From assembly GCA_039919075.1 (NCBI GenBank), contig JBDSGJ010000005.1, positions 46,927-110,926 of the forward strand: a DNA stretch of 64,000 nucleotides, in the 5' to 3' direction. The position numbers and the translations under genes were made by a program. The notes under the pieces were generated by a model. That model was not told where the DNA came from, ran no database searches, and saw nothing but the letters and a program-made list of their open reading frames with translations. Below are positions 48,409 through 64,000 of this stretch, one piece after another. The stretch comes from Sphingomicrobium sp. Its GTDB lineage: Bacteria > Pseudomonadota > Alphaproteobacteria > Sphingomonadales > Sphingomonadaceae. Positions within the stretch are counted from its first letter, which is position 1. Every line of letters starts with the position of its first letter.

Positions 48409-49580
48409 GGACGCCGCGCATTCTCGTCATAGCTGGCTCGGACTCCGGTGGGGGCGCGGGGATCCAGGCGGATATCAAGACGATCACCATGCTCGGCGGG
48501 CATGCGATGACCGCGATCACCGCCATCACCGCGCAGAACACGCTCGGCGTGAGCGCGGTTCATCCGGTGCCGACCGAAATTGTGCTGGCGCAGATCGACG
48601 CGGTGGTCGGCGACATCGGGGTCGACGCGATCAAGGTCGGGATGATCGGCAGCGCCTTTACCGCGACACAGGTGGCGCTTCGGCTGGCGAGTATCGACGT
48701 ACCGATCGTGTTCGATCCGGTGATGATCGCGACCAGCGGGGCGGCGCTGGCCGACGAGGCGACGATCGCGGCGTTCGGGCTGCTGATGGACGTCGCGACG
48801 CTTACCACCCCCAATCTGCCGGAACTCGCGCGATTGACCGGCAACGAGGACCCAATCGCAGCCGGGCTGGCGCTGGTCGGGCGCCATGGCGGCGCGGTGC
48901 TGGTCAAGGGCGGGCACGAGAAAGGCGACGCGCTCGCCGACGCGCTGATCGAGGAGGATAACCTCACCAGCTGGCAGGGTCAGCGGATCGACACGAGCAG
49001 CACCCACGGCACCGGCTGCACGCTGGCCAGCGCGATCGCCTTTCACCTCGGCTGCGGCGAGAGCCTCGCCCGCTCGGTCGAGCGCGCGCGGCATTTCGTG
49101 CGGATGGCGCTGCTCGAGGCGCCGGGATTGGGAGCCGGGCATGGGCCGCTTGGGCAACAGTCGGTGCGGCTCGATGCTGGACCAGAAGCGGGCAACGCGC
49201 TGCGGCTCAATCAGGTGACCGTGACGGGCAGGGATTATGCCGCGATGGTCGCCTTCTATCGCGCGCTGGGGCTCAGGCAGATCGTCGATGCGCCCGACAA
49301 CAATTACGCCCGGTTCGAAAGCGCGGGCGGGGCGACCTTTTCGGTCCAGATCGATCCAGAGGAAGTCATCTCTGAATCGACCGCAGTCTATTTCGAGTGC
49401 GACGACCTCGACCAGCGCGTCGAGCGGCTGGCCCGCGCGGGGATCGCCTTCGAACATGGCCCGCGCGACCAGCCATGGATGTGGCGCGAGGCAAGGTTGC
49501 GCGACCCGGCAGGGAATATCGTCTTTCTCTACAAGGGCGGCGAGGCGCGCCGCTTTCCGCCGTGGCGAATGGCCGAGTGA
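48405..49580 (+). CDS. thiD: HMP/HMP-P kinase ThiD fused to a VOC/glyoxalase domain
   Basis: AGSDSGGGAGIQADIKT, TPNLPE, THGTGCTLAS; C-terminal NQVTV...YFECDDLD...WREARLRDPAGN. Confidence 0.88.
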   Translation: MRTPRILVIAGSDSGGGAGIQADIKTITMLGGHAMTAITAITAQNTLGVSAVHPVPTEIVLAQIDAVVGDIGVDAIKVGMIGSAFTATQVALRLASIDVPIVFDPVMIATSGAALADEATIAAFGLLMDVATLTTPNLPELARLTGNEDPIAAGLALVGRHGGAVLVKGGHEKGDALADALIEEDNLTSWQGQRIDTSSTHGTGCTLASAIAFHLGCGESLARSVERARHFVRMALLEAPGLGAGHGPLGQQSVRLDAGPEAGNALRLNQVTVTGRDYAAMVAFYRALGLRQIVDAPDNNYARFESAGGATFSVQIDPEEVISESTAVYFECDDLDQRVERLARAGIAFEHGPRDQPWMWREARLRDPAGNIVFLYKGGEARRFPPWRMAE

Positions 49581-49602
49581 AGGCCAGCCGCAGCACATCC
49601 AT

Positions 49603-49682
49603 CATCCCGGGCCCGACCCGGGACCTACCTATCTTTCTTGGCCTGGTGCAAGATAAAGGTAGGCCCCGGATCAAGTCCGGGG
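49603..49682. repeat. REP-like composite palindrome (casposon target, left part)
   Basis: Hairpins TCCCGGG-ccga-type/CCCGGGA, CCTACCT...AGGTAGG and CCCCGGA-TCAAG-TCCGGGG; continues as CCGGATCAAGTCCGGGGTGACG at 63486. Confidence 0.75.
49666..49680 (+). repeat. Left target-site duplication CCGGATCAAGTCCGG
   Basis: Identical to 63486-63500. Confidence 0.9.
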
Positions 49683-49722
49683 GGTATAGTGATATGACGA
49701 AATCGATGGGTAGGTGACCACA
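49681..49722 (+). repeat. Left terminal inverted repeat
   Basis: GGGGTATAGTGATA-N19-GTGACCACA. Confidence 0.9.
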
Positions 49723-49937
49723 GTCCGCATTGGCTGTGCGGCGTTTTGTTATCAGCGCGGTAGCTCTGTAAGCGGCCCGTCGGCTCGCCTCACCTCGTCG
49801 GCGTGACCGTGACGGAAACAGCACCAATTCTTCAATGGATAGTTTTGTTGTTAATTATTGGCACTCCAGCTTCCTTTCCGCTCGCAGACCTGCTTAACAT
49901 TGTTGCGCTGCACGTGTTTTTTGGAAGGACGCCTAAA

Positions 49938-50162
49938 ATGAGGCTACTGCGATCGCTAGCCTTCGCGACGGTCGTTTGTAGTGCGTCTTCGGCGCTTGCT
50001 ACGGAAACGATTGCATATACTTATGATGCACGAGGCCGGGTGATAAAGGTCGTTCGGACGGGTACGATAAATAACAACCTCACCTACGATTACACCTTCG
50101 ACAAACCCGACAATCGGACCCGGGTTAAGGTGACTAATTCGCCAAATCCTCCGCCGCCATAA
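49938..50162 (+). CDS. Small secreted single-YD-repeat protein
   Basis: Signal peptide MRLLRSLAFATVVCSASSALA, then ETIAYTYDARGRVIKV...YTFDKPDNRT. Confidence 0.7.
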   Translation: MRLLRSLAFATVVCSASSALATETIAYTYDARGRVIKVVRTGTINNNLTYDYTFDKPDNRTRVKVTNSPNPPPP

Positions 50163-50203
50163 TCACTAACTGTTTTTTTTCGGCTGTGTGGGGGGGGCGA
50201 GTG

Positions 50204-53200
50204 ATGTTGGAATTTCGTCGGGTCAGCTTATTGCCCGCAAAGCGGCTTTTTTCGCTTGCCGCGCTTCTCTCGATTGCCCTCGCCGCCCCGAGCCATGGGC
50301 AAAGCGCGGGACCCGTAGCCAGCCCGCCTACTCGGCTAAACATCGATCAAAATGGTGTCGATGTTGTGTCGGGCACATTCGATATCCAACAAACCGATGT
50401 GGCCATCGGTCCACCCACGGGCGGCCTTCAGTACGTTCGAACGTCACGCGGTAGCGGCTGGCTAAACCCGTATTTCGGGACAATTAAAGTTTCAGGGTCG
50501 CAACGGATTGTCAGTATCGGCGGGCAGTCAACCACCTTCACGCTGACCGGTTCGGTCTACGTTTCGGATCAGGGCACCGGTGCCACGCTGGCCTACAACT
50601 CCTCAACACTCATTTATACATATACAACGCCTAATGGCGTTGTGGCGACCTTCGAGCCATTGATAAACACGAAAGTCCAATACACCGCTTACGCCGCGAC
50701 GTTAACAAAGCTCAAGTATCCGTCGGGTCTTGAACTCACAATGACCTACCGATTCCAAAATAACTGTGTTCGGGTCGGTAGTATTTGTGACGGTGGGGCT
50801 ACCAAGCGCGTTGCGCGTCTTCAATCGGCTAACTCGAATACGGGCTACCAACTAAAATTCGAATATGCCTACAATCCCAGTGATACACCGCCGTTCGATG
50901 TCGATCTCCTTGATAGCTGGTACCAACTCACCAGCGTCACGGGCCTCAATAACGCAGTCGAATATTGCGCGCCCTCCAGCAGTGTTTGCACCTACGTCAA
51001 TAGCTGGCCCAAGGCGCAGTACACAACTGACGGGCTGCAGGTTACGGACCCGCTCAATCGAGTGACCAAATACACTAAGGTAGCCAGTCGAATCACCGCC
51101 GTTCGGCGACCGTCGAGTGCCACAGATAACCTCACGCTGAGCTACGATGCGAATGCGCGGGTCGCCACTTTTTCAGACGGCGCTGGGGGTTGGACGTACG
51201 GCTACTCCGATGTGGGCAACGTCCGCACCACGACCGTCACGGATCCCGCCGGACATAACCGCATTATCGTTTCCGATCTTACATTGCTTCGTCCTACCGC
51301 AATCACGGACGAACTGGGTCGCACTACCAACTATCAATATGATGCGAATGGCCGTGTCACACGCGTCACACTTCCAGAGGGTAATTATACCAGTTTCACT
51401 TACGACGCGCGTGGGAACGAGACCCAGGCGACTTCGGTTGCGAAGGCGGGTTCGGGCTTGACTGATATAGTCGCCACCGCCAGCTATCCAGCAACGTGCA
51501 CGAATGTTGTCACATGTAACCAGCCGTCGTCGGCAACGGATGCTCGAGGAAACACCACCGACTATGTTTACGACCCGACTCATGGCGGTGTGACGAGCGT
51601 AACGTTACCTGCCCCGTCAGTTGGTGCGGTACGGCCGCAAACCCGATTCAGCTACACGCCTCTCTACGCTTGGTACAAGAACAGTGCAGGCACGATCGTC
51701 CAGGCGACATCGTCAGTTTACGAGCCTACCTCGACGTCGTCTTGCCAGTCGCTTGCTAGCTGCGCGGGCGGGTCCGATGAGGTCAAGCGAACGTTGACCT
51801 ACGGCACGTCGGGAGTCGCGAACAATCTTCTTCCGACAACATCATCGTCAGGGTCAGGGGATGGCCTACTAACTTCGACGACCACAAGTGTGTGGGATAT
51901 GTATGGTAACCCCTTCACGGTAGACGGGCCACTTGCCGGAACGGCAGACACGACGCGATTTCGGTATGACCTCGCACGTCAATTGACTGGAGTCGTCGGG
52001 CCGGATCCCGACGGCGCGGGCTCACTCAAAAATCGTGCAATGAGAAATACCTACAATCTCGATGGCCAGACGACATTAGTGGAGCGCGGCACTGTCAACA
52101 GTCAAAGCGATCCTGACTGGACGGCCTTCGCGACCTTGCAACAGGTTGCCACCAGCTACGACGCTCAGGGGCGGCGGGTAAAGGAAAGCGCGACCGCTGG
52201 CGGGACGACCTATGCGGTCACGCAATACAGCTACGACAGTATGAGTCGCGCCGATTGCACAGCAGTACGGATGAACAGCGCGGTGTTCGGTTCGCTGCCA
52301 GCCTCGGCCTGCACCGCTGGAACGCCGGGAAGCTTTGGAGCGGATCGAATCAGCAAGATGACTTACGATTGGGCGAGCGAACCTACGATATTGCAGTCCG
52401 CGCTTGGCACTGTCGACCAGGCCAATGACGTGACGCTGACTTACAGCAACAATGGCAAGAAAGCCACTTTGACGGACGCAAACGGAAATCTCACAACCAA
52501 TGAATATGACGGCTTCGATCTGCTGCTGAAAACGCGCTTTCCCTCGCCCACCGTGCCCGGAACGAGTTCGACGACGGACTATGAGCAGGCAACTTATGAT
52601 CCGGCGGCAAACGTAACGCAGAGACGTCTGCGTGACGGGCAGCTGATTGGCCTTACTTACGACGCACTCAATCGCGTCACAGCCAAGGATTTGCCGGGAG
52701 CCGAACCCGACGTCGCCTACACGTATGACAATCTGGGGCGCTTGTTGACTGCATCCCAGACTGGCCAGACGCTAACCTACTCATACGACGCACTTAGCCG
52801 CACCTTGTTGCAAGGTGGGCCGCTCGGGACAATGGCAACGCAATGGGACCTGGCCGGGCGGCGCACGCGGCTGACCTATCCGGACGCCTTCTACGTCACC
52901 TACGACAATCTTGTCACCGGTGAGGTGACAGCCATCCGCGAAAATGGAGCGGTCTCGGGCATCGGTGTACTGGGGGCGTACGCGTACGACAATCTGGGGC
53001 AGCGCTTGTCGCTTGTCAGAGGGAACGGAACTGCCAGCACTTATGGCGATGACTCAGTATCGCGCTTGATCTCGCTAGCGCATGACCTGTCGGGGACGAA
53101 CAATGACCTTACGGTGGGCCTAACCTACTCACCTGCAGCGCAGATTGCGACACGGACAGCGAGCAACGATCTTTATGCGTGGGGCGGGCATTATAATCGC

Positions 53201-54409
53201 GACATCATCGAAACGCCCAATGGATTGAACCAGTTGACTGTTCAGGGAGCAACATCACTGACCTATGACGGTCGCGGCAACACGTCGGCGGTGGGCGCTG
53301 CGAGCTATGGTTATTCGTCGGAGAATCTCCTGACTTCCGGTCCCGCCGGAGTGACTCTCAACTACGATCCGGCGCAGCGGTTGTATCAGACGGTGGGCGC
53401 CTCGACGACGCGGTTCGGCTATGATGGCGTGGAGATGATCGGGGAATATGATGGCAGTGCCGCGCTGCAGCGGCGCTATGTGCGCGGGCCGGGCAGCGAC
53501 GAGGTCCTTGTATGGTACGAAGGCAGTGGCACGGTCGATCGGCGCTGGGTCTATCAGGACGAGCGCGGCTCGACGATCGCCATCGCCAATGCCAGTGGTG
53601 CGCTCACCAATGTGTTGAGCTACGATGAATATGGCTCCCCGGCGACGGCTAATGTCGGGCGGTTTCAGTATAGCGGACAAATGTGGTTGCCCGAGCTTGG
53701 AATGGCCTATTACAAGGCGCGCATCTACGCGCCCGGTCTCGGGCGATTCATGCAGACCGACCCGATCGGCTATGCTGCTGGGATGAATCTCTACGCCTAT
53801 GTCGGGGGCGACCCCGTCAACTTCGGAGACCCTGACGGATTGTGCAGCAACAAGATCGCCGAGACCACCGACCCGAAGTGCCTTGCGCAAGACGGCAATG
53901 GAGGAATCTGGGATCGCGGGGAGTGGCGTCCGGATATACCTGTGGTGGGCAAGCCCTTCCAGCCTGGCTTTAGCGCGGGGACGACGTTTGGATCGGCGGT
54001 CGGCTATCAAATTCCTAGCGGCAACGGGAACGCAGGGACCGGCGTCGAAATGGCTTGCGTTGGACCGCTAAGAGCGCTTGCTGGAGCGTGTGCTCGCGCC
54101 TTGAACGACGTATTGAAGAGAGTTCTTCCTGAGGTAAAAGTGCCCACGCTGCCACCCGGTGTGACGCCCCGGCAATTCGGTGACGCGGCAGGCTTCGGCC
54201 GGTCACTAAAGGACCTACCCCTGCGGAGTGCAGACGACGTAGCAAACTCTGCAAACAGACTTCAGTCGATGGGTTTTACATCCAACGACGTCGCAGCGTG
54301 GCGGAATTTCTACCAGGATCAGTCATGGCGGGTGCCACAGAATCTCAGTGCGGCACATAGAGCCGGCCTTCTGGACAGAATATGGTGGAACATGAAGCTC
54401 CCATTTTGA
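50204..54409 (+). CDS. RHS/YD-repeat polymorphic toxin with signal peptide
   Basis: Many YD repeats (YDANGRVT, YDALNRVT, YDNLGRLL); core end GRFMQTDPIGY...NLYAYVGGDPVNFGDPDG followed by a variable C-terminal domain of about 190 aa. Confidence 0.92.
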   Translation: MLEFRRVSLLPAKRLFSLAALLSIALAAPSHGQSAGPVASPPTRLNIDQNGVDVVSGTFDIQQTDVAIGPPTGGLQYVRTSRGSGWLNPYFGTIKVSGSQRIVSIGGQSTTFTLTGSVYVSDQGTGATLAYNSSTLIYTYTTPNGVVATFEPLINTKVQYTAYAATLTKLKYPSGLELTMTYRFQNNCVRVGSICDGGATKRVARLQSANSNTGYQLKFEYAYNPSDTPPFDVDLLDSWYQLTSVTGLNNAVEYCAPSSSVCTYVNSWPKAQYTTDGLQVTDPLNRVTKYTKVASRITAVRRPSSATDNLTLSYDANARVATFSDGAGGWTYGYSDVGNVRTTTVTDPAGHNRIIVSDLTLLRPTAITDELGRTTNYQYDANGRVTRVTLPEGNYTSFTYDARGNETQATSVAKAGSGLTDIVATASYPATCTNVVTCNQPSSATDARGNTTDYVYDPTHGGVTSVTLPAPSVGAVRPQTRFSYTPLYAWYKNSAGTIVQATSSVYEPTSTSSCQSLASCAGGSDEVKRTLTYGTSGVANNLLPTTSSSGSGDGLLTSTTTSVWDMYGNPFTVDGPLAGTADTTRFRYDLARQLTGVVGPDPDGAGSLKNRAMRNTYNLDGQTTLVERGTVNSQSDPDWTAFATLQQVATSYDAQGRRVKESATAGGTTYAVTQYSYDSMSRADCTAVRMNSAVFGSLPASACTAGTPGSFGADRISKMTYDWASEPTILQSALGTVDQANDVTLTYSNNGKKATLTDANGNLTTNEYDGFDLLLKTRFPSPTVPGTSSTTDYEQATYDPAANVTQRRLRDGQLIGLTYDALNRVTAKDLPGAEPDVAYTYDNLGRLLTASQTGQTLTYSYDALSRTLLQGGPLGTMATQWDLAGRRTRLTYPDAFYVTYDNLVTGEVTAIRENGAVSGIGVLGAYAYDNLGQRLSLVRGNGTASTYGDDSVSRLISLAHDLSGTNNDLTVGLTYSPAAQIATRTASNDLYAWGGHYNRDIIETPNGLNQLTVQGATSLTYDGRGNTSAVGAASYGYSSENLLTSGPAGVTLNYDPAQRLYQTVGASTTRFGYDGVEMIGEYDGSAALQRRYVRGPGSDEVLVWYEGSGTVDRRWVYQDERGSTIAIANASGALTNVLSYDEYGSPATANVGRFQYSGQMWLPELGMAYYKARIYAPGLGRFMQTDPIGYAAGMNLYAYVGGDPVNFGDPDGLCSNKIAETTDPKCLAQDGNGGIWDRGEWRPDIPVVGKPFQPGFSAGTTFGSAVGYQIPSGNGNAGTGVEMACVGPLRALAGACARALNDVLKRVLPEVKVPTLPPGVTPRQFGDAAGFGRSLKDLPLRSADDVANSANRLQSMGFTSNDVAAWRNFYQDQSWRVPQNLSAAHRAGLLDRIWWNMKLPF

Positions 54410-54427
54410 GGCGAGGGAGATAGATCA

Positions 54428-54631
54428 ATGATAGTGACTATATCGAATGTGGACGATGCTGACTTTTCAGTGGTTGTGGAGCCGTACGCCGAAGAGCGAC
54501 CGTTGCCAAGGAAGTCCTCAATCAAGATCGAAATCTTATCAATTGCATTGAGTGATTATGAGATTGTTGTTGGCGATGCTGTTATATCTTTATTTATACC
54601 ATCGGATGCAAAGTATAAGTTTATCGACTGA
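54428..54631 (+). CDS. Candidate immunity protein
   Basis: Acidic 67-aa ORF with a GGGAG RBS, 18 bp after the RHS stop, AT-rich. Confidence 0.6.
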   Translation: MIVTISNVDDADFSVVVEPYAEERPLPRKSSIKIEILSIALSDYEIVVGDAVISLFIPSDAKYKFID

Positions 54632-54762
54632 TACAAGCAATTAACCAAGTTGATCTATTCGTATATATGCAAACCCAGTTAGAATTTATTTTATGCAAAG
54701 GATGGAAACGTTCGCTTTAACAAATGGTCAATTAACCCATTGTAGCTTGATCTTGCAATCGG

Positions 54763-57700
54763 TCAGGTTTTGGAGGGGGGACTACACGGCACTGTGTGGG
54801 GAGACTCCGGTGCCGTTTCGGAACCATGGGTTGTGTGGGTTGAGCGCTCATTCGATGACTTCAGTTTACGTCGCAGGTTCGACGGATCGATCTCAAGCCG
54901 CCGCGCAGTTGCTCGAAGTCCGTCACGTCTCACGGAGACCCGAAGATGGCCAAGTTCGGCCTGCCGTTCGCCACTAAACTTAGCTGCTAGACGTCGGGCC
55001 GTTGGCAATCGCCTCGTTACTTTCTCCGCCAGCTTTTTGATCTTAGGAGATTCCGGGTCTGCCACGAGTGCCTTCAGGCGAGAAATTGGAATGCCAATCA
55101 GCCTCGACCCGGTCGCGTCACCAAAGTCAAACAGATAGGATCGCAGCTCCTCGGCTACTTGGTCGGGTGACGCGCCATAAGCGACGAGGCTGTCTGGATT
55201 GAGCCCAAGGATGGCTAGCCGCTGCCAGTCGTTCGATTCCTTGCCGATATGGATGACGTGACCGGCGTGGATATGGCGCCGCCTCGTCGTGCCCCGGTCC
55301 CAGTAATCCCCGTTTAGGAACTTCGACTCAGGTTGAAGATAGTATTGGGCGAGTGCCTCAGCGTAGGTTTTGAGCGCGTCACTCGAAATCGGATCACCGC
55401 TGATTCGATCAAATGCCCCCCCTATCGCCTTAGCGTTAGACGAATCGAAGGGCGCAATTGGCCTGATGTCCGTTCGCTTCAACCGCTTCGCCCGGCGTTC
55501 GCTATCGATTACGCTTTCGACCGGCGCATCCTTCTTCGCCGTCATCGCCAGCAAAAAGCCGAATGGCTTCACCTGACTGCGATACGGCTTTCCCTTATTG
55601 AATTTCGAGAACCATTTGAGCAATTCGGGGGTAGTAGCCCCATAGCGGCTAATTGCCGGTCGCCTAAGGCCTGGATGAAAATCCATTGGCACCCTATTAG
55701 GATTGCCGCTCAGTGCAGCACAAATGATTTGATACCAAACATCCGCGTGCCAGCGCTCAATCCCTTTGCCCAAGACGGACCTATCCGGCGCCAGTATTGA
55801 TTTTGGCGCATCCGTTTCTGGATAGGGTGCTAAATGCTGCCCTAAGCCGTGAGCCGATACCTTTCGCATCATCGGCTTTTCGTCCGCTCCTAAATTAAAA
55901 AGAGCATAGCGTTTCGACGATATGGCCCAGCAGAAAAGCGGCTCCGGCAAATTGCTTTGAAGTCCCGAATTCACATCCTCAGTTTTTAGGATCGAACCTG
56001 GAAAACAATAGGGGTTCAGCGCCTCGAACCAATTCACAATCGACGCAACGCGGCTTTCAAATTCGGACGGATTCATCCCATCAGGCTTTGCAATCGCAAT
56101 GCTATCAGTATCGCAAAAAGCCCAATCCATTCCGCTTTCGATTGTCAGCGTCTCGGCAATTGCCAACATTAGCCGAGCGGCGCCTGTAATGAGTGTGCCG
56201 AGCAATGGATGAAAATACGAGCCGGGCATTTCCGATTTATCGGTTTCAAAGCTAAACGGCTCGCACGTAGAGCTATGCACTGTCGTTTTCGATTTGGAAG
56301 CGCGGCTATCGACATTGACCTCGATATAGATTCCATAGCTGACCGAATTGGCCGCAATCTTCAGCGCGTTCTGTTCAGTGTCCAGCGAATCCAATTCATT
56401 GCCAGTCGCCCCGGCCTTCCGGCCCTGAGTGGCCTTTCGCAATTCGATTAGCCGTTTGAAGAAATCGTCTTCGTAAGGTTCGATATGATAGTCCGGATTG
56501 CCAGCGATATCGATCGGTCGGAGACCGTCTTGCGGTATTCCCGCCTCAAACGAGATAGCTTCCAAAACTTCGAGCGATTTGCCGGTCAAAAGCTTTGAAG
56601 CGATGCAGTCCGCCAGCGTGAACCACAGCGGGGTTGCAGAGGTTAGGTGATTGGCGCCGATGGTCGTTTGCGCCTCGCCGCTGTACGCAGCGCGGACTGG
56701 GAAGATTTCCCCCGCCGCTTGGACGCGAACAAGAGTGGTCAGGCCGAGCCAGATTGGCTTGGACTGGAGCACAAGCAAGTCGATCGCTTCCAGCAGCTCC
56801 CTTGTCTCCGTTGTCGAGTCGCGCCACGTAACCCCTTCAGCCGCCACAAATCGCCATAGATTCATGAGCGTGCAAACTGTCGGGTACATCGATAGGAAGT
56901 CGCAAAGGATGATCTGCCGCATCTCGCGCCGAATGCGAACCTCGGAGCGCCCGCCGAAATAGCTGCCCATGATCTTGGCGAGCAGGTGGCGGGGAAATTC
57001 CGGTTGCACGTCGCGCCATGGGCGAACGCCCATTTCCCTGAGATAGCCCTTGCCGATGCTGGCTTCGCTGTAAATTTTCTCTGGTATGGTTCGCGAGAAA
57101 CCAAGCTTGGCGAACCGCCGTTGTAATTCGGCATAGCATTCCCAGGTCGTTTGAACGTCGCCGACCGCATAGCGGACCATATCCTCGGTGATTGGCCCGT
57201 TGAATTCATCGAATTCGATTTTGGGATTGGCTACTTTCAGGAAATTGCCCAAGCCTTGGAGACTAAAGCTTCTAGCAAACAAGGCTGAGGCCAAAGTCTT
57301 GACGTCAATGAAATGCCCGCGCCGGACTGGGATCGCCAGCCCACGATTGCGGTGACCGCGACCGTCCTTTTGACGCATCGGCGCCGAGAAGGCGATTAGG
57401 GCCGATCGGCGGGACAAATGCTTGACTCGGATATTGGGCCAGATTTTTTGCTCGGACAGTTTGAAGGTGAAGGCGCCCCGCATAGGAGCTTTGTCTTGGG
57501 CGAGCGGCGTCTTGGCCGTCCCATGGCTAATCGCTATGCGGGATATATCGAACGGAAGGTTAAATCCGACGATCGTTGCCCGGAGCATATAAGCCCGCTG
57601 GAAAAAGACTTCATCGACGAATTCAGTTCGCGTTCGCAGTTTGAGACCGTGCAAAGCCGCATGCTGACCGATGACCTCAAGTTCGGACGGCAAGACTCCC

Positions 57701-57954
57701 TCAGGATCGTAGAAGATTCCAGCTTCGTCCAATTCTTCGCCGCACCGAAATTGATAGGTGCCGAAGCGGAGCGCTTGCGCCGCATCGGTTGTAGTCTCGG
57801 TATCGAATATCAGCGTGAAGTCAGACGCCGGGAGTGCAGGCTTGCGCTCCTTGCGCGGCGGTTTGTTCGGGTCCGGCAAGATCGTGAACGTCGGTCCGGT
57901 ATACGCCCGCAGCGCGATTGGAAGAAAGTCCGTGATTGGGGGGATGTTGGACAT
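54763..57954 (-). CDS. polB: Family B DNA polymerase (casposon, probably protein-primed type) with C-terminal HTH
   Basis: ExoI FDTETT, ExoII GFNLPFD, ExoIII YAVGD; YFGGRSE; motif A CDFLSMYP; motif B KIAANSVSYG; motif C CDTDS. Confidence 0.93.
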   Translation of the reverse strand: MSNIPPITDFLPIALRAYTGPTFTILPDPNKPPRKERKPALPASDFTLIFDTETTTDAAQALRFGTYQFRCGEELDEAGIFYDPEGVLPSELEVIGQHAALHGLKLRTRTEFVDEVFFQRAYMLRATIVGFNLPFDISRIAISHGTAKTPLAQDKAPMRGAFTFKLSEQKIWPNIRVKHLSRRSALIAFSAPMRQKDGRGHRNRGLAIPVRRGHFIDVKTLASALFARSFSLQGLGNFLKVANPKIEFDEFNGPITEDMVRYAVGDVQTTWECYAELQRRFAKLGFSRTIPEKIYSEASIGKGYLREMGVRPWRDVQPEFPRHLLAKIMGSYFGGRSEVRIRREMRQIILCDFLSMYPTVCTLMNLWRFVAAEGVTWRDSTTETRELLEAIDLLVLQSKPIWLGLTTLVRVQAAGEIFPVRAAYSGEAQTTIGANHLTSATPLWFTLADCIASKLLTGKSLEVLEAISFEAGIPQDGLRPIDIAGNPDYHIEPYEDDFFKRLIELRKATQGRKAGATGNELDSLDTEQNALKIAANSVSYGIYIEVNVDSRASKSKTTVHSSTCEPFSFETDKSEMPGSYFHPLLGTLITGAARLMLAIAETLTIESGMDWAFCDTDSIAIAKPDGMNPSEFESRVASIVNWFEALNPYCFPGSILKTEDVNSGLQSNLPEPLFCWAISSKRYALFNLGADEKPMMRKVSAHGLGQHLAPYPETDAPKSILAPDRSVLGKGIERWHADVWYQIICAALSGNPNRVPMDFHPGLRRPAISRYGATTPELLKWFSKFNKGKPYRSQVKPFGFLLAMTAKKDAPVESVIDSERRAKRLKRTDIRPIAPFDSSNAKAIGGAFDRISGDPISSDALKTYAEALAQYYLQPESKFLNGDYWDRGTTRRRHIHAGHVIHIGKESNDWQRLAILGLNPDSLVAYGASPDQVAEELRSYLFDFGDATGSRLIGIPISRLKALVADPESPKIKKLAEKVTRRLPTARRLAAKFSGERQAELGHLRVSVRRDGLRATARRLEIDPSNLRRKLKSSNERSTHTTHGSETAPESPHTVPCSPPSKT

Positions 57955-58316
57955 TAGAAATCTCCCGAGGGTGTTGGTGCAGAGCGTTCGATAAGCTGTT
58001 CGCCAAAGGTCGTGAGCTTTTCGAGGATGCGTCGAAGCATGTCGGCCAGGCCAAGCAGAAAGCGGCCAATGGCGTGCAACGTCGCATCGGCGTTCGGATC
58101 GAAGGCCGGATGGTCCTTCTGGGTATCGGATAGCTTGCGGTGGCAATTGCGACATGCGATCACGGTGGTGTCATCGCAGCCGAAATCGGCGGCGTGATGA
58201 AGCTCCATGCAGCGCCAGTCATCTTCGCCGCAAATGCAGCAGCTCGGTTCATTCGATCCTAGCGCTTCGAGCCGACGCTGCTTTCGCTGTTCCCACTTAA
58301 GTTGATCTTCGGTCAC
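57954..58316 (-). CDS. HNH endonuclease-like Zn-binding protein
   Basis: CCICG...ELHH...IACRNCHRK; GGAG RBS before the GTG; its stop overlaps the polB ATG (TAATG). Confidence 0.8.
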   Translation of the reverse strand: MTEDQLKWEQRKQRRLEALGSNEPSCCICGEDDWRCMELHHAADFGCDDTTVIACRNCHRKLSDTQKDHPAFDPNADATLHAIGRFLLGLADMLRRILEKLTTFGEQLIERSAPTPSGDF

Positions 58317-58329
58317 GTTAGTTCTCCTT

Positions 58330-58899
58330 TCAAATGATGAGACGGTAGATTTCATGGAAAACTTCATCGCCCTGCGCGGCCATGCGGTGCAGGCGGTTGG
58401 GGTCAGTTTCGAGGGGATGCATCTTGCCATGCACATCGCGGACCGAACGGCCTTCGAAGGGTCGGAGCAGGTCGATATCGTTCGAGTTCAGAAAGGCGCC
58501 GACTGCTGCCGAGTGCTGGCCATTGAGGGAGGCTTGCTCAAAGCCGTCGAGCGTAAGTTCTTTCGAATCGCCCTCAGTTATGACCGTCATGCGACGCGGG
58601 CGGTTGTCGGTGATTTGCCAAAGGCGCCCGGTCCGTTGTGCAAGGGAGTTGTGGCGCAGGAAACGGCGGAATCGCTCGGGTGCGACCCCGGCCTGTTTCG
58701 CAGCGGCGGCTTGGCGACCCGTTTGGCGTAGGAGCTTCAGCGCCGCTTCAAGCTTTTGGTCGGTAATGAAAGGCTGAGCGCGAACGGGCGACTCGATCGA
58801 TCGAGCGTGGCCGCGAGCCTGCGACCGACTCAGGCCGCGCTTGGCGGCGTTCGCGATGCGGCGCTGATATTCAGCCTGATAGTTGCGAGTCGTTGCCAT
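58330..58899 (-). CDS. Hypothetical DNA-binding protein (HTH-like)
   Basis: AAAAKQAGVAPERFRRFL helix-turn-helix-like segment; first gene of the operon with HNH and polB. Confidence 0.6.
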   Translation of the reverse strand: MATTRNYQAEYQRRIANAAKRGLSRSQARGHARSIESPVRAQPFITDQKLEAALKLLRQTGRQAAAAKQAGVAPERFRRFLRHNSLAQRTGRLWQITDNRPRRMTVITEGDSKELTLDGFEQASLNGQHSAAVGAFLNSNDIDLLRPFEGRSVRDVHGKMHPLETDPNRLHRMAAQGDEVFHEIYRLII

Positions 58900-58973
58900 G
58901 CCCCAATTGGAGCTGGAGTCAGGACGCTACGCGAATCGAATAAAGGAAAGAATTACGAACAGTTTTGTCTAGA

Positions 58974-59633
58974 TCAATTCGATTTCCAAAAGACCTTCAA
59001 ATGCCGATCAATAGCTCTATTACTTGGAGCGGAATTCGTAAAAATATGAGGAAACATTATTAGACCATGGCGATGAACAGCGGACGATTGTCGGCCCGGC
59101 TTCAATCCTTCTATTTGACTCTTGATCGATTCTGCGATTGCAAAAACATAGCTTTTAATTGAGGGGCGTCCTATTTTGGTTTCCTGTAGTTCAATGGCCC
59201 CAGCGACACGCACCTTGGCATAACGGTATTCGCCGTCGCGGAATTCTGACTTTCGGTAATCAATAAATTTGTGTTGAAAGAGAAAGGGCGGAACAAGCTC
59301 ATGTGGTGCATCTGACCCTTTTGAGGTGAGAAAACCAATTGCAATTAGCCGACCGCTTTCGAGAGCTTCGATAAATTGGTTTTGCTGACTGCAATATGAT
59401 TCGGTCCTTATCGCCAAATCGACCTGCAAATTTTCTGCGGCCTTAAAAATTAGCTCCGCATCGCTACCGGCAGTCGCGAATTTATGCCGCGAATATTGCG
59501 AATTATCCCTGATTTGGCCTTCAACTTTTGCTAGTCGGGATTCGTCCGGATTTGGCACGAACGTCGCCAATATCTTGCTTAGCGGCGTGCCGCTTTGCCA
59601 CAAACGGGACAGGGTCGCGGTGCTTAGTGGCAT
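58974..59633 (-). CDS. Hypothetical protein (start could extend to 59702)
   Basis: Long open frame in an AT-rich stretch; C-terminal GRPS followed by a helical segment. Confidence 0.6.
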   Translation of the reverse strand: MPLSTATLSRLWQSGTPLSKILATFVPNPDESRLAKVEGQIRDNSQYSRHKFATAGSDAELIFKAAENLQVDLAIRTESYCSQQNQFIEALESGRLIAIGFLTSKGSDAPHELVPPFLFQHKFIDYRKSEFRDGEYRYAKVRVAGAIELQETKIGRPSIKSYVFAIAESIKSQIEGLKPGRQSSAVHRHGLIMFPHIFTNSAPSNRAIDRHLKVFWKSN

Positions 59634-59729
59634 GAGGGCGGCGGCTGAATAGTCATTGGGAATCCGGTGATAAGGGGCGGATTTTAAAGACCCGTTAACC
59701 ACCTAAACATGATGTGAATTCAGCTCTTT

Positions 59730-60851
59730 ATGTTAAAGGTCGGTATGCTCCATGGAATTGAAATTCGATCCGACGAAATTGCCGACGAGTGGGCGATCCG
59801 CTCTGAGTTCTGGCAAGGCGAAGCGGCTTCCCCGAAACGGGTTCGTCGCAAGCGAGAGCGCAACGCGCAACCCTTAATTTTATGCGGACATGGCGTGTCG
59901 CTCCGGATTGAAAATGGCGCGCTCGTAATTCGGGACGGCTTCACGCATTACCCACAAGAGCAGGCGCGGTATCGGTTTTTCCCACGCGACCTAGAGCTTC
60001 CAACGCGCATTCTCTTGCTGGACGGTAGTGGAACCCTCTCGTTCGACGTATTGAACTGGCTTGCCGACCAAGGCGTTGCACTGGCCCGCATCAAATGGAC
60101 TGGCGAGGTCGCGACAGTGGCGGGCGGGAATGGTTACGCGGCGGACCCCGCGAAATTGGATTGGCAGAAGGAAACTCGTGGCAACCCCGCGAAACGCCAC
60201 GCTTTTGCAGCCAATCTTATTCGCCTGAAAGTTGTTGCCAGCCTCGATACGCTTGAGCGCTGCATCCCGGACACTCGCGCCCGCCAAATGGCGACCGGAA
60301 AAGCAAGGGCGGCGATCGAACGACTCCAAGTCGAAGTTTTCCCTGACTTGAATGCGATATTTGCGGTCGAAGGTGAGTGTGCGTCATCCTACTTCGCGGC
60401 GTGGCACGGACTGCCGGTTCATTGGATTGGGCTTTCTAGGCGTCCCGTTCCCAATGATTGGCAGTGCTACTCGGGGCGCAGCTCGCTCGCAGTTGGCATC
60501 AAACCGGAGAACCGGAACGCCTCACACCCTATCAACGCGATGTTGAATTACGCTTACGCGGTGAAACTCTCGCAGCTTCAAATCGACACGATCGCGGGCG
60601 GGTTCGATCCCAGACTGGGGATCATGCATAACAGTCACAAGGGCACCCCGGCGCTGGTTTTGGATTTCATCGAGCTAGAGAGGCCCCGCGTTGACGCAAA
60701 GATATTGGAACTGGTCGCAACCCGCAAATTTGCGGCGGCTGATTTCATCGTAAAGGATGATGGTGTCTGTCGCCTGTCGCCGCAGCTAGCGCGGGCCGTC
60801 GCCATCCTTACGGTCCAATGCAAACCGTTTGGACTTCCGACCACGCTTTAA
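59730..60851 (+). CDS. cas1: Stand-alone Cas1 (casposase)
   Basis: Cas1 catalytic-type motifs EGECASSYF, INAMLNYAY, GFDPRLGIMH, LVLDFIELERPRVD; N-terminal LRIENGALVI beta domain; no cas2 or array nearby. Confidence 0.92.
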   Translation: MLKVGMLHGIEIRSDEIADEWAIRSEFWQGEAASPKRVRRKRERNAQPLILCGHGVSLRIENGALVIRDGFTHYPQEQARYRFFPRDLELPTRILLLDGSGTLSFDVLNWLADQGVALARIKWTGEVATVAGGNGYAADPAKLDWQKETRGNPAKRHAFAANLIRLKVVASLDTLERCIPDTRARQMATGKARAAIERLQVEVFPDLNAIFAVEGECASSYFAAWHGLPVHWIGLSRRPVPNDWQCYSGRSSLAVGIKPENRNASHPINAMLNYAYAVKLSQLQIDTIAGGFDPRLGIMHNSHKGTPALVLDFIELERPRVDAKILELVATRKFAAADFIVKDDGVCRLSPQLARAVAILTVQCKPFGLPTTL

Positions 60852-61085
60852 GCCCGCTTCCAAGGCACCCCCCTCAGCAAGCGGCACGAACAGCTCGCTT
60901 AGGTGAACGCCCAATGTCGCGGCGAGTTTGTCGAGGACATCAACGCTCGGATTCTCCTCAGCGCGTTCCACTCCACCTAAATAGGAACGGTCCACTCCAG
61001 CATCAAAAGCAAGCCGTTCTTGCGAAACATCACTCGCAACGCGAATGCGCCTTAGGTTTCGTGCAATGATATCGCGCCCGCGCAT
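60786..61085 (-). CDS. XRE family HTH regulator
   Basis: NLRRIR...VSQERLA..AGVDRSYLGGVERAEENPSVDVLDKLA. Confidence 0.9.
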   Translation of the reverse strand: MRGRDIIARNLRRIRVASDVSQERLAFDAGVDRSYLGGVERAEENPSVDVLDKLAATLGVHLSELFVPLAEGGALEAGLKRGRKSKRFALDRKDGDGPR

Positions 61086-61174
61086 AGGCAGGCCAAAGCT
61101 ATTTACGGGACATTAAACCACGGGCGATATCCATCTAATTAGAGTTTCAAGGTCACTCTGATGGAGATGTCACC

Positions 61175-61765
61175 ATGTTTTTCCTTCCCCTGCTGTTAGC
61201 GACAATATCCCAAGCCCCTGCTTCCCCTCGTTCCTCGTCCCTCCCCAACGCCGATAATGGTCGAAATGCCAAGGTCATATCTGCAACCCTAGCGAGAGAC
61301 ATAGATGGGGTAGCGCTTGGCGCGTCTATCGGCAGCGTTCGCAAGATGATGACGCTCACGTCGATCGGCGGCGAGCAATTCCAAGGCCGAATGGCGTCAG
61401 TCGATTTTGACCTTGAGTTCACGCCCTTAGGGCGGTTGTTCCGCATAAGCTCGAAACAGAATTTGGGGCAATTCGAGATAGATAAGGATTTCAACCAGAC
61501 CTTAAACCGCAGACTAGCTACAAAATACGGTGTCCCGCGCGGCGCTTCGATCGACACCCGCTATTGGAAGCTAATTCAGGACGTCGAAGATGCCGATGGG
61601 AAACAGCATCCCTTTGTCGTCAACTGGTTGAATGTTGATGCATCGCGCGGCTACGATGGGGTCGAGTTGACGATGACGATGATCGATTTCCGCTACCTCA
61701 TGGCCGATAGGGCCAGATTGAACCACAAACCTCGCAATCAGGCCGAGGGGAATATTTCATTCTGA
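61175..61765 (+). CDS. Hypothetical secreted protein
   Basis: Hydrophobic N-terminus MFFLPLLLATISQAPA; 196-aa open frame. Confidence 0.6.
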   Translation: MFFLPLLLATISQAPASPRSSSLPNADNGRNAKVISATLARDIDGVALGASIGSVRKMMTLTSIGGEQFQGRMASVDFDLEFTPLGRLFRISSKQNLGQFEIDKDFNQTLNRRLATKYGVPRGASIDTRYWKLIQDVEDADGKQHPFVVNWLNVDASRGYDGVELTMTMIDFRYLMADRARLNHKPRNQAEGNISF

Positions 61766-61895
61766 AGTGTCCACTATCACATGACGGACGAGCCGAGCCA
61801 TAGACTGCACGGGCCAATACACTTTAGGTTGCTAAAATCAGTTAGCTTCACAGTAGAATGGCAATTAATTTCTGATATGCTTTGCGACCAGAAGG

Positions 61896-63362
61896 GTGAA
61901 TGATTTGGCCAAAGGCAGACGCAACCAGCGAGTATCCACGGTTTATAAACTCAAACGGTCGCAGGCGACTTTAGATTTTGTGGACGTAGATGTAGCTCGG
62001 GACACGAAGGTCTTTGTTAGCCCGCGTGCGCTCACGCTTATGCAAACAGATTGGGGCGATGGCTGCGTTTCACTCGTTCAAAACTTCTTCGAAACCGTCC
62101 TTCAGCGAATCAAGGATGGAGATGACGCGGGTGCCGAAGCTCTTTTGCAGGAATTAAGGGAGCCTAATGAAACACATCTTGGGCTTTCGAGTAGGGAGTC
62201 GCGCGGCCGCGCGTTGGGCAATGAATCCGCGCATGATGTTTGGTCTGCGCTCAGCCAGAGTGCGGCCGCAAAATCGGGCCTCATTCACGACCTCGAAGAC
62301 ACGGTGCTTCTGATTCACGGTATTGGGGTAGATATTGTCTCGGATGTGACCACCAATATCATACGCGGCCCGTTGATCGCTTACACTCAAGAGCAATGCA
62401 GACAGCTTGGCATTCCGCTCATTGCGGACGTGCCATCGGGACCGATTTGGCACCCGGCAAGGCGAGAATGGATTGCCAAATTTGTTGAACTTCCAATGCC
62501 TAAGACCGGGAAACTTTTGCTTGTTCCAAAGGCGATCGTCCGGCGCACGTCACTTTATGACATGCAGGAGTATTATCGTCATTTCATGCTTGAACACATG
62601 CAACGTGAAGAACTTAAGGCCGGTTCGGCCCTAATAACTATGTTGAAGAAGGGGCCAAAAGTTCACAAAAGCGATCTGATTGATAAGTATGGTGGCGACA
62701 AGAGCGCCGTAATCGAGCAAACGATGAAATATCCCGATGTCTTAGACGACTATCGTCGGGAAAAAGGCAAACGTCCGTTCCTACCCCTCAGTCACGAAGA
62801 CCTCGAAAACCTTGAAGGCAGCTCGCCCGTGGATTGGGATTCGCTCCTAGACGCGGTGACATCGCTGCCGACTGGCACCCAGGACGCATCTTCCTACGAA
62901 AAGGCTATCGAAGCGCTTCTTACTGCACTCTTTTACCCCGATTTGGTTCATCCTGTATATCAACATGAAATCCATGACGGTCGAAAACGGATCGATATCA
63001 AATATACCAATATGGGCGGAGCCGGATTCTTCGCTTGGTTATCTAGGCACTACACAGCGCCCCAAGTTTTCGTGGAATGCAAAAATTACGGTGGCAAAGT
63101 CGCAAACCCAGAACTCGATCAGCTCGCTGGTCGGTTTGGTCGCAGTCGAGGCAATTTCGGAATTCTTGTTTGCCGTCAGTTCGATAACACGGCTCGATTT
63201 CAGCAAAGCTGTTGCGATACCGCTAGGGACGATCGGGGTTATATCGTTGCACTCGACGACGACGATTTGAAGGCACTCGTGGAGGCTCGCAAGGCCAATG
63301 ACGAAGAAGTTTATCGAGATTTACCCCTACTAAGAGAGCGTTTCGAGCAACTCATTGCATAG
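61896..63362 (+). CDS. Hypothetical protein with a C-terminal PD-(D/E)XK restriction-endonuclease-like domain
   Basis: YEKAIEALL...RIDIKY...VFVECKNYG...LDQL.GRF motif order. Confidence 0.7.
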   Translation: MNDLAKGRRNQRVSTVYKLKRSQATLDFVDVDVARDTKVFVSPRALTLMQTDWGDGCVSLVQNFFETVLQRIKDGDDAGAEALLQELREPNETHLGLSSRESRGRALGNESAHDVWSALSQSAAAKSGLIHDLEDTVLLIHGIGVDIVSDVTTNIIRGPLIAYTQEQCRQLGIPLIADVPSGPIWHPARREWIAKFVELPMPKTGKLLLVPKAIVRRTSLYDMQEYYRHFMLEHMQREELKAGSALITMLKKGPKVHKSDLIDKYGGDKSAVIEQTMKYPDVLDDYRREKGKRPFLPLSHEDLENLEGSSPVDWDSLLDAVTSLPTGTQDASSYEKAIEALLTALFYPDLVHPVYQHEIHDGRKRIDIKYTNMGGAGFFAWLSRHYTAPQVFVECKNYGGKVANPELDQLAGRFGRSRGNFGILVCRQFDNTARFQQSCCDTARDDRGYIVALDDDDLKALVEARKANDEEVYRDLPLLRERFEQLIA

Positions 63363-63443
63363 GACGGATTGCATCTGGCTAGCGGCCACCAAAGTTCAAA
63401 TGGTCGGGAACGGCGGGCACACCGACTACCCCATCGCCGCAAG

Positions 63444-63485
63444 TGTGGTCACACTCGCTCGGTTCAGCAGCTATCACTATACCCC
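63444..63485 (-). repeat. Right terminal inverted repeat
   Basis: TGTGGTCAC-N19-TATCACTATACCCC, the reverse complement of the left-end architecture. Confidence 0.9.
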
Positions 63486-63500
63486 CCGGATCAAGTCCGG
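63486..63500 (+). repeat. Right target-site duplication CCGGATCAAGTCCGG
   Basis: Identical to 49666-49680. Confidence 0.9.
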
Positions 63501-63518
63501 GGTGACGAAGAGAGGTAG

Positions 63519-64000
63519 ATGAAACGCCCCTGTTTCAAGATCGAGCGCCAGTTCGCCGAACCGCTGGCCGGGGTCGACGAAGCGGGCTGCGCGCCGCTCG
63601 CCGGGCCCGTCGTGGCGGGGGCGGTTGTGCTCGACCGCGATCATTTTCCACGCGGGATCGATGACAGCAAGAAGCTCGATCTCGAAACGCGCGAGGCGAT
63701 CTTCGGGCGATTGCAGAAGGTCGCGCGGATCGGGGTCGGGATTGCCTCAGTGGAGGAGATCGACACGCTCAACATCTATTGGGCGCGAATGCTGGCGATG
63801 AAGCGCGCGGTGGAAGCGCTGGGATTCGAACCGGCCTTCGTGCTGGTCGACGGCAACCGCCTGCCGCGCTGGGAGCGGACCGAGGCCAAGGCGATCGTCA
63901 AGGGCGACACCAAGTGCCGTTCGATCGCCGCCGCCTCCATCGTTGCCAAGGTCACGCGCGATCGGATCATGCTTGAGCATAGCCGGACCTATCCGGGCTA
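63519..64000 (+). CDS. rnhB: Ribonuclease HII (partial, runs off the window end)
   Basis: Manual translation: AGVDEAG..PLAGPVVAGAV, DDSKKL, LVDGN, KGD....SIAAASIVAKVTRD. Confidence 0.95.
   Translation, partial: MKRPCFKIERQFAEPLAGVDEAGCAPLAGPVVAGAVVLDRDHFPRGIDDSKKLDLETREAIFGRLQKVARIGVGIASVEEIDTLNIYWARMLAMKRAVEALGFEPAFVLVDGNRLPRWERTEAKAIVKGDTKCRSIAAASIVAKVTRDRIMLEHSRTYPG

Follow-up and report, generated by a model that had tools for sequence, protein, structure and literature searches.

How does a mobile element that relies on a Cas1-family integrase mark its own ends? The question is raised by a casposon of 13,805 bp (positions 49681-63485) in a 64,000-nucleotide stretch of a Sphingomicrobium sp. 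contig (JBDSGJ010000005.1, positions 46,927 to 110,926; assembly GCA_039919075.1), which we call the window and whose first letter is position 1 throughout. The element encodes Cas1, a family B DNA polymerase (PolB), a putative HNH protein and a conserved protein of 189 amino acids (p189), plus cargo. A first-pass annotation of the letters alone had described each end as two blocks, separated by exactly 19 dissimilar bases, and had taken the outer one for the casposase or priming site and the inner one for a second protein-binding site held at a fixed helical spacing. We put the probability at roughly 65% that these are the ends of a family-3-type casposon in which Cas1 uses the tip as its substrate and the inner block serves as an accessory end-recognition site.

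Two blocks at each end of the element

The arrangement GGGGTATAGTGATA-N19-GTGACCACA is present at 49681-49722 and, inverted, at 63444-63485, matching the first-pass annotation in coordinates and sequence (Table 1). The two spacers, both of 19 nt (TGACGAAATCGATGGGTAG on the left; GCTGCTGAACCGAGCGAGT on the right, read on the reverse complement of 63444-63485), are as dissimilar as had been noticed and agree in register at 4 of 19 positions. The 9-mer GTGACCACA occurs exactly twice on the two strands of the 64-kb window, where 0.11 occurrences are expected, and the 12-mer GGTATAGTGATA, allowing at most one mismatch, has the same two sites only (0.02 expected). With the ends anchored, an in-register exact run of at least 9 in the next 106 nt has a probability of about 4.3e-4 among random segment pairs from the element, and of about 4.6e-3 when offsets of ±5 are permitted.

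We collected relatives in three ways: by Cas1, by an end pattern free of any fixed spacing, and by p189. The Cas1 search gave 10 loci with 41-68% identity, mostly from metagenome-assembled genomes of Sphingomonadales. These hold 13 further ends with the outer block (in L001-L005, L007 and L010), 12 of which also have the inner block after N19; the exception is L010, where the inner block is partial. All identifiable ends of L001-L005 and L007 have the form GGGGTATAG(T/C/G)GA.. - N19 - nTGACCACA, with the spacing of the window. Two more distant Cas1 relatives (L006 and L009) are uninformative about this type of end: their best inverted matches are different sequences, not established as termini, and those of L006 look like interspersed repeats of the host.

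The pattern scan (GGGGTATAGNGA-N{10,40}-TGACCACA in a collection of species-representative genomes) returned at least 118 loci and at least 120 matches. Among the 120 matches listed, the gap is 22, as in the window, in 91 cases, 23 in 16 and 21 in 4; the remaining 9 are scattered over all other gaps at about 0.3 per length, which is the level expected by chance. The listed matches with a gap of 23 belong to one coherent subfamily, with members in Gammaproteobacteria, Haliangium, Rubrobacter and others. Among the matches listed, the inner block occurs in Alpha-, Beta- and Gammaproteobacteria, to which the +1 subfamily adds Rubrobacter and Haliangium.

In the p189 set (63 loci), ends were located by the outer block alone, pointing toward the gene. 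Where p189 is at least 54% identical to that of the window, 52 of 54 ends carry TGACCACA with at most one mismatch, at position 35 (50 ends) or 34 (2 ends) of the element. The information content of the p189-ascertained ends is 1.5-2.0 bits at positions 35-42, falls below 0.3 bits from position 44 onward and is close to 0 from position 46. Between the blocks, A23 and A24 have 1.39 and 1.28 bits (A23 is present in 83% of the pattern set); T13 has 1.25 bits, T10 has 0.92, and the other spacer positions have at most 0.5. Position 34, the first base of the 9-mer GTGACCACA, is unconserved. At position 23, where relatives favour A, the left end of the window has T.

Aligned in this way, homologous ends conserve both the inner block and its distance from the outer one. 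The two-block pattern is confirmed and generalises to more than 100 ends. The fixed helical spacing proposed at first is mostly right, with the amendment that there are sublineages at ±1 bp and one lineage in which the block lies exactly 10 bp closer. The alignments indicate that the real unit is a terminal inverted repeat (TIR) of about 43 bp, in which two blocks are under strong constraint and the centre holds a short A-rich patch. In L005 and L157 both ends are alike through the spacer too, over the whole 43 bp; in the window, divergence of the spacers has left the skeleton unusually clear to see.

The first-pass annotation had also placed the right inner block inside the inverted repeat AGTGTG-GT-CACACT. 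This palindrome exists (63442-63455) but was not found at the left end, and we regard it as incidental because it depends on positions 33-34, which are unconserved in relatives. A single-strand hairpin as part of the inner block was rejected on the same grounds: it forms at the right end only (z of -3.15 in a DNA fold), and the left end lacks this fold.

Two further observations concern the ends. A terminator-like hairpin with a T-run (CCGCATTGGCTGTGCGG CGTTTTGTT) lies at 49725-49741, just inside the left inner block and facing inward; it could halt read-through from the neighbouring ThiD-like gene, and it is not kept in relatives. A mini-element of 3.3 kb (L016, 1729-4993) has both canonical blocks at both ends and a target-site duplication (TSD) of 14 bp, and it lacks Cas1, PolB and p189. 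Its sole large open reading frame (ORF), of 805 amino acids, looked by eye like a repeat-rich protein of the nucleoside triphosphatase/leucine-rich-repeat type. This is a candidate non-autonomous casposon, and its keeping both blocks is consistent with their acting in cis.

Insertion sites and gene content

A 19-bp exact direct repeat (CCCCGGATCAAGTCCGGGG) abuts both ends (49664-49682 and 63484-63502). Because it overlaps the terminal G/C runs, the boundary is ambiguous from the copy in the window alone. It is resolved by L002, in which a repeat of exactly 15 bp (CTCCCCACTGGGGAG) flanks an element that starts with GGGG; under this rule the 14-bp outer block of the first-pass annotation is exactly the terminus. 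The insertion site is an intergenic hairpin between the thiD-like gene and rnhB, single-copy within the window, and the TSD is centred on its dyad. The hairpin stem is rebuilt at both junctions because the element begins with GGGG.

This type of target is common in the family. Among 10 complete elements, 7 have a TSD of 15 bp and 2 have one of 14 bp. At least 5 of 7 pairs across its dyad are complementary in 57 of 123 non-identical ends (46%), compared with 6.6% of shuffled TSDs and 3% of a shifted control. The TSD is thus usually a GC-rich palindrome cut symmetrically. A sister lineage (L177, L178, L186, L188, L192, L196, L201) is inserted not at GC hairpins but at GTTC-N7-GTTC, the alphaproteobacterial form of the LexA/SOS box, with which its TSD overlaps. 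Four of these elements (L177, L188, L192 and L201) lie in the promoter region of recA, their neighbouring gene (Pfam RecA, E ~1e-145).

Identical ends in two different flanks (L139/L141 versus L140) indicate recent movement. In the rhizosphere/root metagenomes from which the window derives, contig depth (runs X1-X3) is 22-26 in the flanks (48800-49300 and 63500-64000) and 5-7 in the element (49800-63500), a contrast of about 4-fold. One contig of the source study joins 49567 to 63561 and represents a related strain that has no casposon here. The insertion is therefore polymorphic, with casposon-free related strains coexisting with the carrier. The junction of the bridging contig is not at the TSD and adds no base-exact boundary, and an exact-protein look-up of the ThiD-like flank gene, aimed at an empty site, had no match.

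The gene content is that of a casposon. A stand-alone Cas1 and a PolB lie in the same element, between TIRs with a TSD of about 14-15 bp; family-profile scans found no other cas families among the ORFs of the element, and there is no repeat array in 49400-63800. The Cas1 profile leaves 16 residues at the end of the protein, which has no match to helix-turn-helix (HTH) families: this casposase lacks the C-terminal HTH of family 2. The host is bacterial, as in family 3. The flanks encode a ThiD/glyoxalase fusion (ending at 49580) and an rnhB-like RNase HII (starting at 63519), and the relatives are in Sphingomonadales and other bacteria. The G+C content is 0.49-0.60 in the element and 0.61-0.68 in the flanks.

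Cas1, PolB and p189 occur together in 10 of the 10 Cas1-ascertained loci, and the small HNH-like gene is also found in every relative. The full PolB ORF (54763-58155) spans 1130 amino acids. Its start is probably M68, giving about 1063 amino acids and leaving the ORF 67 N-terminal residues too long, because the alignments with relatives begin at residue 68-69 and the genes called in these code for 1017-1037 amino acids. The PolB C-terminus has a weak Fis-type HTH (HTH_8, E 0.023, under the cut-off). The HNH assignment was made by eye from a CxxC..HH..CxxCH motif, in an ORF with no Pfam match above the cut-off; relatives have a gene for 120-125 amino acids at the same position. In the window, the stop codon of the HNH-like ORF overlaps the likely PolB start (TGATG), an arrangement that suggests translational coupling.

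The cargo comprises an Rhs/YD-repeat protein, with a weakly DUF4951-like C-terminus, and an Mrr-like endonuclease. In relatives, the arm that carries the Rhs gene holds a reverse transcriptase (RVT_1) with an STM3845-family protein, Mrr-like nucleases and a DDE_3 insertion sequence. Further ORFs of the element encode a 242-aa protein, found in some relatives only, and a 196-aa protein.

Table 1. Features of the casposon ends, insertion site and genes, in window coordinates.
Feature	Position	Strand	Remarks
Left TSD copy CCGGATCAAGTCCGG, 15 bp	49666-49680	+	Exact only at k=15 with terminus GGGG
Left-junction hairpin CCCCGGA-TCAAG-TCCGGGG	49664-49682	+	7-bp stem (DNA fold); host sequence plus first two G of the element
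Left outer (terminal) block GGGGTATAGTGATA	49681-49694	+	Element positions 1-14; conserved in relatives
Left central A-rich patch AAATC	49700-49704	+	Element positions 20-24; corresponds to semi-conserved A23/A24
Left inner block GTGACCACA	49714-49722	+	Conserved core TGACCACA at 49715-49722, element positions 35-42
Rhs/YD-repeat protein, 1407-aa ORF, cargo	50186-54409	+	Pfam RHS_repeat, E 1.4e-22
PolB, family B DNA polymerase	54763-57954	-	Weak Pfam DNA_pol_B; PHROG DNA polymerase, 3.7e-9
Small putative HNH-type endonuclease, ~120 aa	57954-58316	-	Motif CCIC..ELHH..CRNCH in translation
p189, 189-aa conserved protein	58330-58899	-	Predicted winged HTH
Cas1 casposase, 373 aa	59730-60851	+	Pfam Cas_Cas1, 1.5e-30, residues 51-357
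XRE-family HTH protein, 99 aa	60786-61085	-	NCBIfam HTH matches; accessory
Mrr-like restriction endonuclease domain protein, 488 aa, cargo	61896-63362	+	Pfam Mrr_cat, 9.9e-5; phrog_27295, 7.5e-142
Right inner block GTGACCACA	63452-63444	-	Core TGACCACA at 63451-63444
Right outer (terminal) block GGGGTATAGTGATA	63485-63472	-	Plus strand ends ...TATACCCC-3' at 63485
Right-junction rebuilt hairpin	63484-63502	+	
Right TSD copy, 15 bp	63486-63500	+	

Proposed roles of the blocks and rival explanations

Across many diverged elements, selection has kept both blocks and their spacing and left the spacer free, as expected of two recognition sites set a fixed distance apart. The second protein site of the first-pass annotation stands in this sense, the binding itself being what we infer. 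Of the two roles that had been offered for the outer block, the casposase site is supported by analogy with a characterised casposase (...TATACCCC-3'; PMC6614799), and priming found no support. In the mechanism that we propose, the terminal block (positions 1-15, GGGGTATAG(T/C)GAT(A)(G)) would be the substrate of Cas1, with the 3'OH of the complementary strand (...TATACCCC-3'OH) as its nucleophile. The A-rich centre, A23/A24, would possibly permit a bend. The subterminal block (TGACCACA(C), positions 35-43) would make a second sequence-specific contact that marks genuine ends and may assemble the end complex or synapsis before excision, replication or integration. A second contact is the most likely use of the extra conserved positions, because characterised casposases need only the last 5 nt for strand transfer.

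Cas1, p189 and PolB are present in all relatives and are the candidate binders of the inner block. The XRE protein, also proposed at first, is an unlikely one, being detected in 4 of 10 relatives. The best candidates are p189 or Cas1 (as a second subunit), and the HTH-like C-terminal tail of PolB is a weaker one. The p189 family has 822 homologues, almost all of exactly 189 amino acids, none of them named and none with a Pfam domain. A PDB sequence search was empty, and Pfam, NCBIfam and PHROG gave sub-threshold HTH hints only. The AlphaFold2 model (pLDDT, the predicted local distance difference test, 81.5) places a beta-hairpin after a bundle of three helices (residues 48-83), and Foldseek matches it best to winged-HTH DNA-binding domains of the LysR type (about 58 residues aligned, root-mean-square deviation ~2.6, probability 0.9-0.99). 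We thus predict a winged HTH. Upstream of it, the N-terminal motif RGLSRSQARGH is invariant in all lineages. The predicted recognition helix ERFRRFLR (helix 74-83) is kept wherever TGACC(A) is kept, including in the lineages that target recA, and is altered in L186/L196 (ERLRKHAIER; block shifted by 10 bp) and in L201/L204 (block GGCACCAC). This covariation is suggestive of a helix that follows the inner block rather than the target. Encoded next to cas1, p189 could supply in trans the HTH that family-2 casposases have at their C-terminus.

Several observations weigh against this account. Where p189 is less than 54% identical, the outer block persists and the inner block is often unrecognisable (20 of 30 ends), so the inner block is not indispensable across the wider family. 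The drift takes several forms: TTGACCAG or TGACCA one base further in (L177, L178, L185, L188, L192, L202), GGCACCAC in its place (L201, L204), no recognisable block (L182, L190, L193), or GACCAC at positions 26-31 instead of 36-41, 10 bp and thus one helical turn nearer the tip (four ends of L186 and L196). These are genuine ends; L182 and L186, for example, have 15-bp TSDs. The fold matches of p189 are partial and weak (E 0.1-1), overall divergence confounds the covariation of helix and block, which spans about 4 independent lineages, and helix positions 82-84 vary in some canonical elements too. The identities of Cas1 and p189 fall together with the loss of the inner block and do not separate the two as its readers. 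Moreover, characterised casposases integrate very short ends in vitro, so that the inner block may not matter to integration, and no family-3 (bacterial) casposase is reported to have been studied (PMC8464041; PMC9939771).

Other functions could be imagined for the same ends. They could be the replication origin or priming site of the element's PolB, with the inner block recruiting the polymerase by its HTH-like tail, or an initiator, and GGGG/CCCC allowing slide-back. Every member has a large PolB, the one in the window has the Fis-like C-terminal segment, and the ends begin with a reiterated G4, much as reiterated 3' bases are used for sliding back in the protein-primed genomes of the PRD1 type. 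TIRs were indeed proposed as origins in the original casposon model (PMC4046053), and Beguin et al. suggest that the TIR beyond its last 5 nt serves excision or replication (PMC6614799). However, the HTH_8 match in this segment is below threshold, and PolB alignments stop before the tail in several relatives that keep the inner block (at residue 1002 in L044). The PolB of family 3 is reported to fall inside the family-2 clade, which is not protein-primed (PMC4046053), and Pfam, NCBIfam, PHROG and PDB searches detected no homologue of a terminal protein. Nor did we find the free linear genomes of a protein-primed replicon: no contig inspected stops at the termini, and all those reaching an end run into host flanks. 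Many p189 contigs have 12-13 kb and were suggestive of free linear or element-length forms, but those inspected hold host flanks and rebuilt hairpins. The oligo-C 3' end is already accounted for by casposase specificity. We consider an origin improbable.

It is still harder to see in the A-rich centre and the inner block the sites of an end-bending nucleoid protein (IHF, HU or Fis-like), with no reader encoded by the element. Host bending proteins act at the ends of IS10 and Mu, and the conserved A23/A24 lie midway between the blocks. Such proteins also take part in CRISPR integration (PMC6977970). But TGACCACA, with 1.5-2 bits per position over 8 bp, is far more specific than the sites of nucleoid proteins, and the block is common to hosts of different classes and differs between element lineages within Alphaproteobacteria; it tracks the element, not the host, and we find this explanation very unlikely. 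We give least credence to an ordinary imperfect TIR whose middle happened to diverge in the window. The ends that are alike over the whole 43 bp would fit such a view, but across some 50-100 non-identical ends the spacer is near 0 bits and the blocks are near 2 bits, and the pattern is therefore a property of the family and not of this copy. Its variant, in which the inner block is an inward-facing -35 box, draws on copies that read the -35-like TTGACC; against it, relatives do not keep position 34, the first base of the supposed box, and positions 58-63 hold no conserved -10. A promoter was also rejected after a consensus promoter scan, which was empty at both ends.

Relation to known casposons, transposons and CRISPR adaptation

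The element is a new family-3-like casposon, whose end architecture is previously undescribed yet an unsurprising refinement. Its Cas1 is 40% identical to the Cas1 fragment of HenMar-C1 (E 2e-27), in a pairwise comparison only and with a fragment taken from a machine-read supplement. The family-3 elements HenMar-C1 (Henriciella marina) and NitAL212-C1 (Nitrosomonas sp. AL212) likewise combine a stand-alone Cas1 with PolB, in a bacterial host and at an intergenic site, and have the HNH gene stated for all casposons of families 2 and 3, of which the window has a putative counterpart; they have 14.4-16.3 kb, compared with 13.8 kb here (PMC4046053). NitAL212-C1 begins with GGGGTAT (GGGGTATGTTAAC...) and has a direct repeat of 14 bp; the window shares GGGGTAT, which supports its membership in family 3. 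The terminus of HenMar-C1 is GGGGATA... and contains ...GGGGATAAGGG (PMC4046053 supplement). The TIR listed there for HenMar-C1 has 37 bp (CCCCCTCTCCCGGATCGGGAGGGGATAAGGGAAAGCA), with a 1-bp direct repeat, and its first part is a perfect palindrome (CCCCCTCTCCCGGATCGGGAGGGG). Judged by the targets described above, this palindrome is probably the target duplication, and the true terminus would be GGGGATAAGG. In contrast to the ends in the window, the published family-3 TIRs are given as continuous, without a described subterminal block, and the printed TIR of NitAL212-C1 lacks TGACCACA (PMC4046053). The published TIR strings of both elements had no exact match in the genome contig collection. 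Literature searches, in a collection that is incomplete, turned up no report for family 3 of symmetric palindromic targets, or of a conserved subterminal block and the distance at which it lies.

The casposases of family 2 are those of Aciduliprofundum boonei and Methanosarcina mazei (PMC6614799, PMC6977970, PMC5137440). Their elements also end in an oligo-C 3' strand (TCCCC-3' in A. boonei, compared with ...ACCCC-3' here), with a TSD of 14-15 bp. The TIR has about 31-37 bp, and since strand transfer requires no more than its tip, the remainder needs another explanation. Archaeal casposases use the 3'-OH at the end of the element as nucleophile. For A. boonei, TCCCC-3' is a sufficient pentamer, the TSD has 14-15 bp, and the conservation of the full 37-bp TIR has been ascribed to other steps, such as excision or replication (PMC6614799). 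A palindromic feature, the T-psi-C arm of tRNA-Pro, is likewise involved in target recognition. The differences are in the protein and in the sites. Family-2 casposases cannot integrate without their C-terminal HTH (PMC6977970), a domain lacking in other families (PMC6614799) and in the Cas1 of the window. Family-2 targets are asymmetric (a leader plus TSD at tRNA 3' ends), whereas the TSD of the window is palindromic and cut symmetrically, and no subterminal block at a fixed distance is reported for family 2.

These comparisons allow a more detailed version of the accessory-site reading, which we put forward as tentative and, on balance, doubtful. End recognition would be split: Cas1 would read the oligo-C tip and p189 would read TGACCACA at a ruler of about 34 bp, replacing the archaeal HTH. 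A short GC palindrome would be attacked symmetrically, giving palindrome-insert-palindrome, and sister lineages would have been retargeted to the SOS box of recA. Whatever the reader, an 8-bp block at a base-pair-exact distance offers a concrete cis element for the question of how casposons are recognised, excised and copied, and the universally linked winged-HTH candidate and the natural mini-elements provide a candidate binder and a ready substrate.

The ends of DDE transposons, such as the 38-bp inverted repeats of the Tn3 family and the ends of IS10/IS50/IS903, Mu and Tn7, have terminal catalytic and internal binding segments, and the spacing between them matters. The two-block ends are this familiar solution, here with a Cas1-family integrase instead and with one inner site per end rather than an array of repeated sites. 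A further likeness is with Cas1-Cas2 of CRISPR systems, where a Cas1-family integrase also makes staggered attacks at the borders of a short, often palindromic sequence that becomes duplicated. The casposon differs in duplicating 15 bp and not a repeat of 28-37 bp, in having no Cas2, array or leader, and in its insert of 13.8 kb with specific ends. The symmetric duplication of a 15-bp palindrome and the lineage at recA promoters bear on how Cas1 integrases choose their sites, a choice that is central to the hypothesis of a casposon origin of CRISPR adaptation. If the split recognition proposed above is true, palindrome-insert-palindrome would be a closer formal analogue of repeat-spacer-repeat than any characterised casposon.

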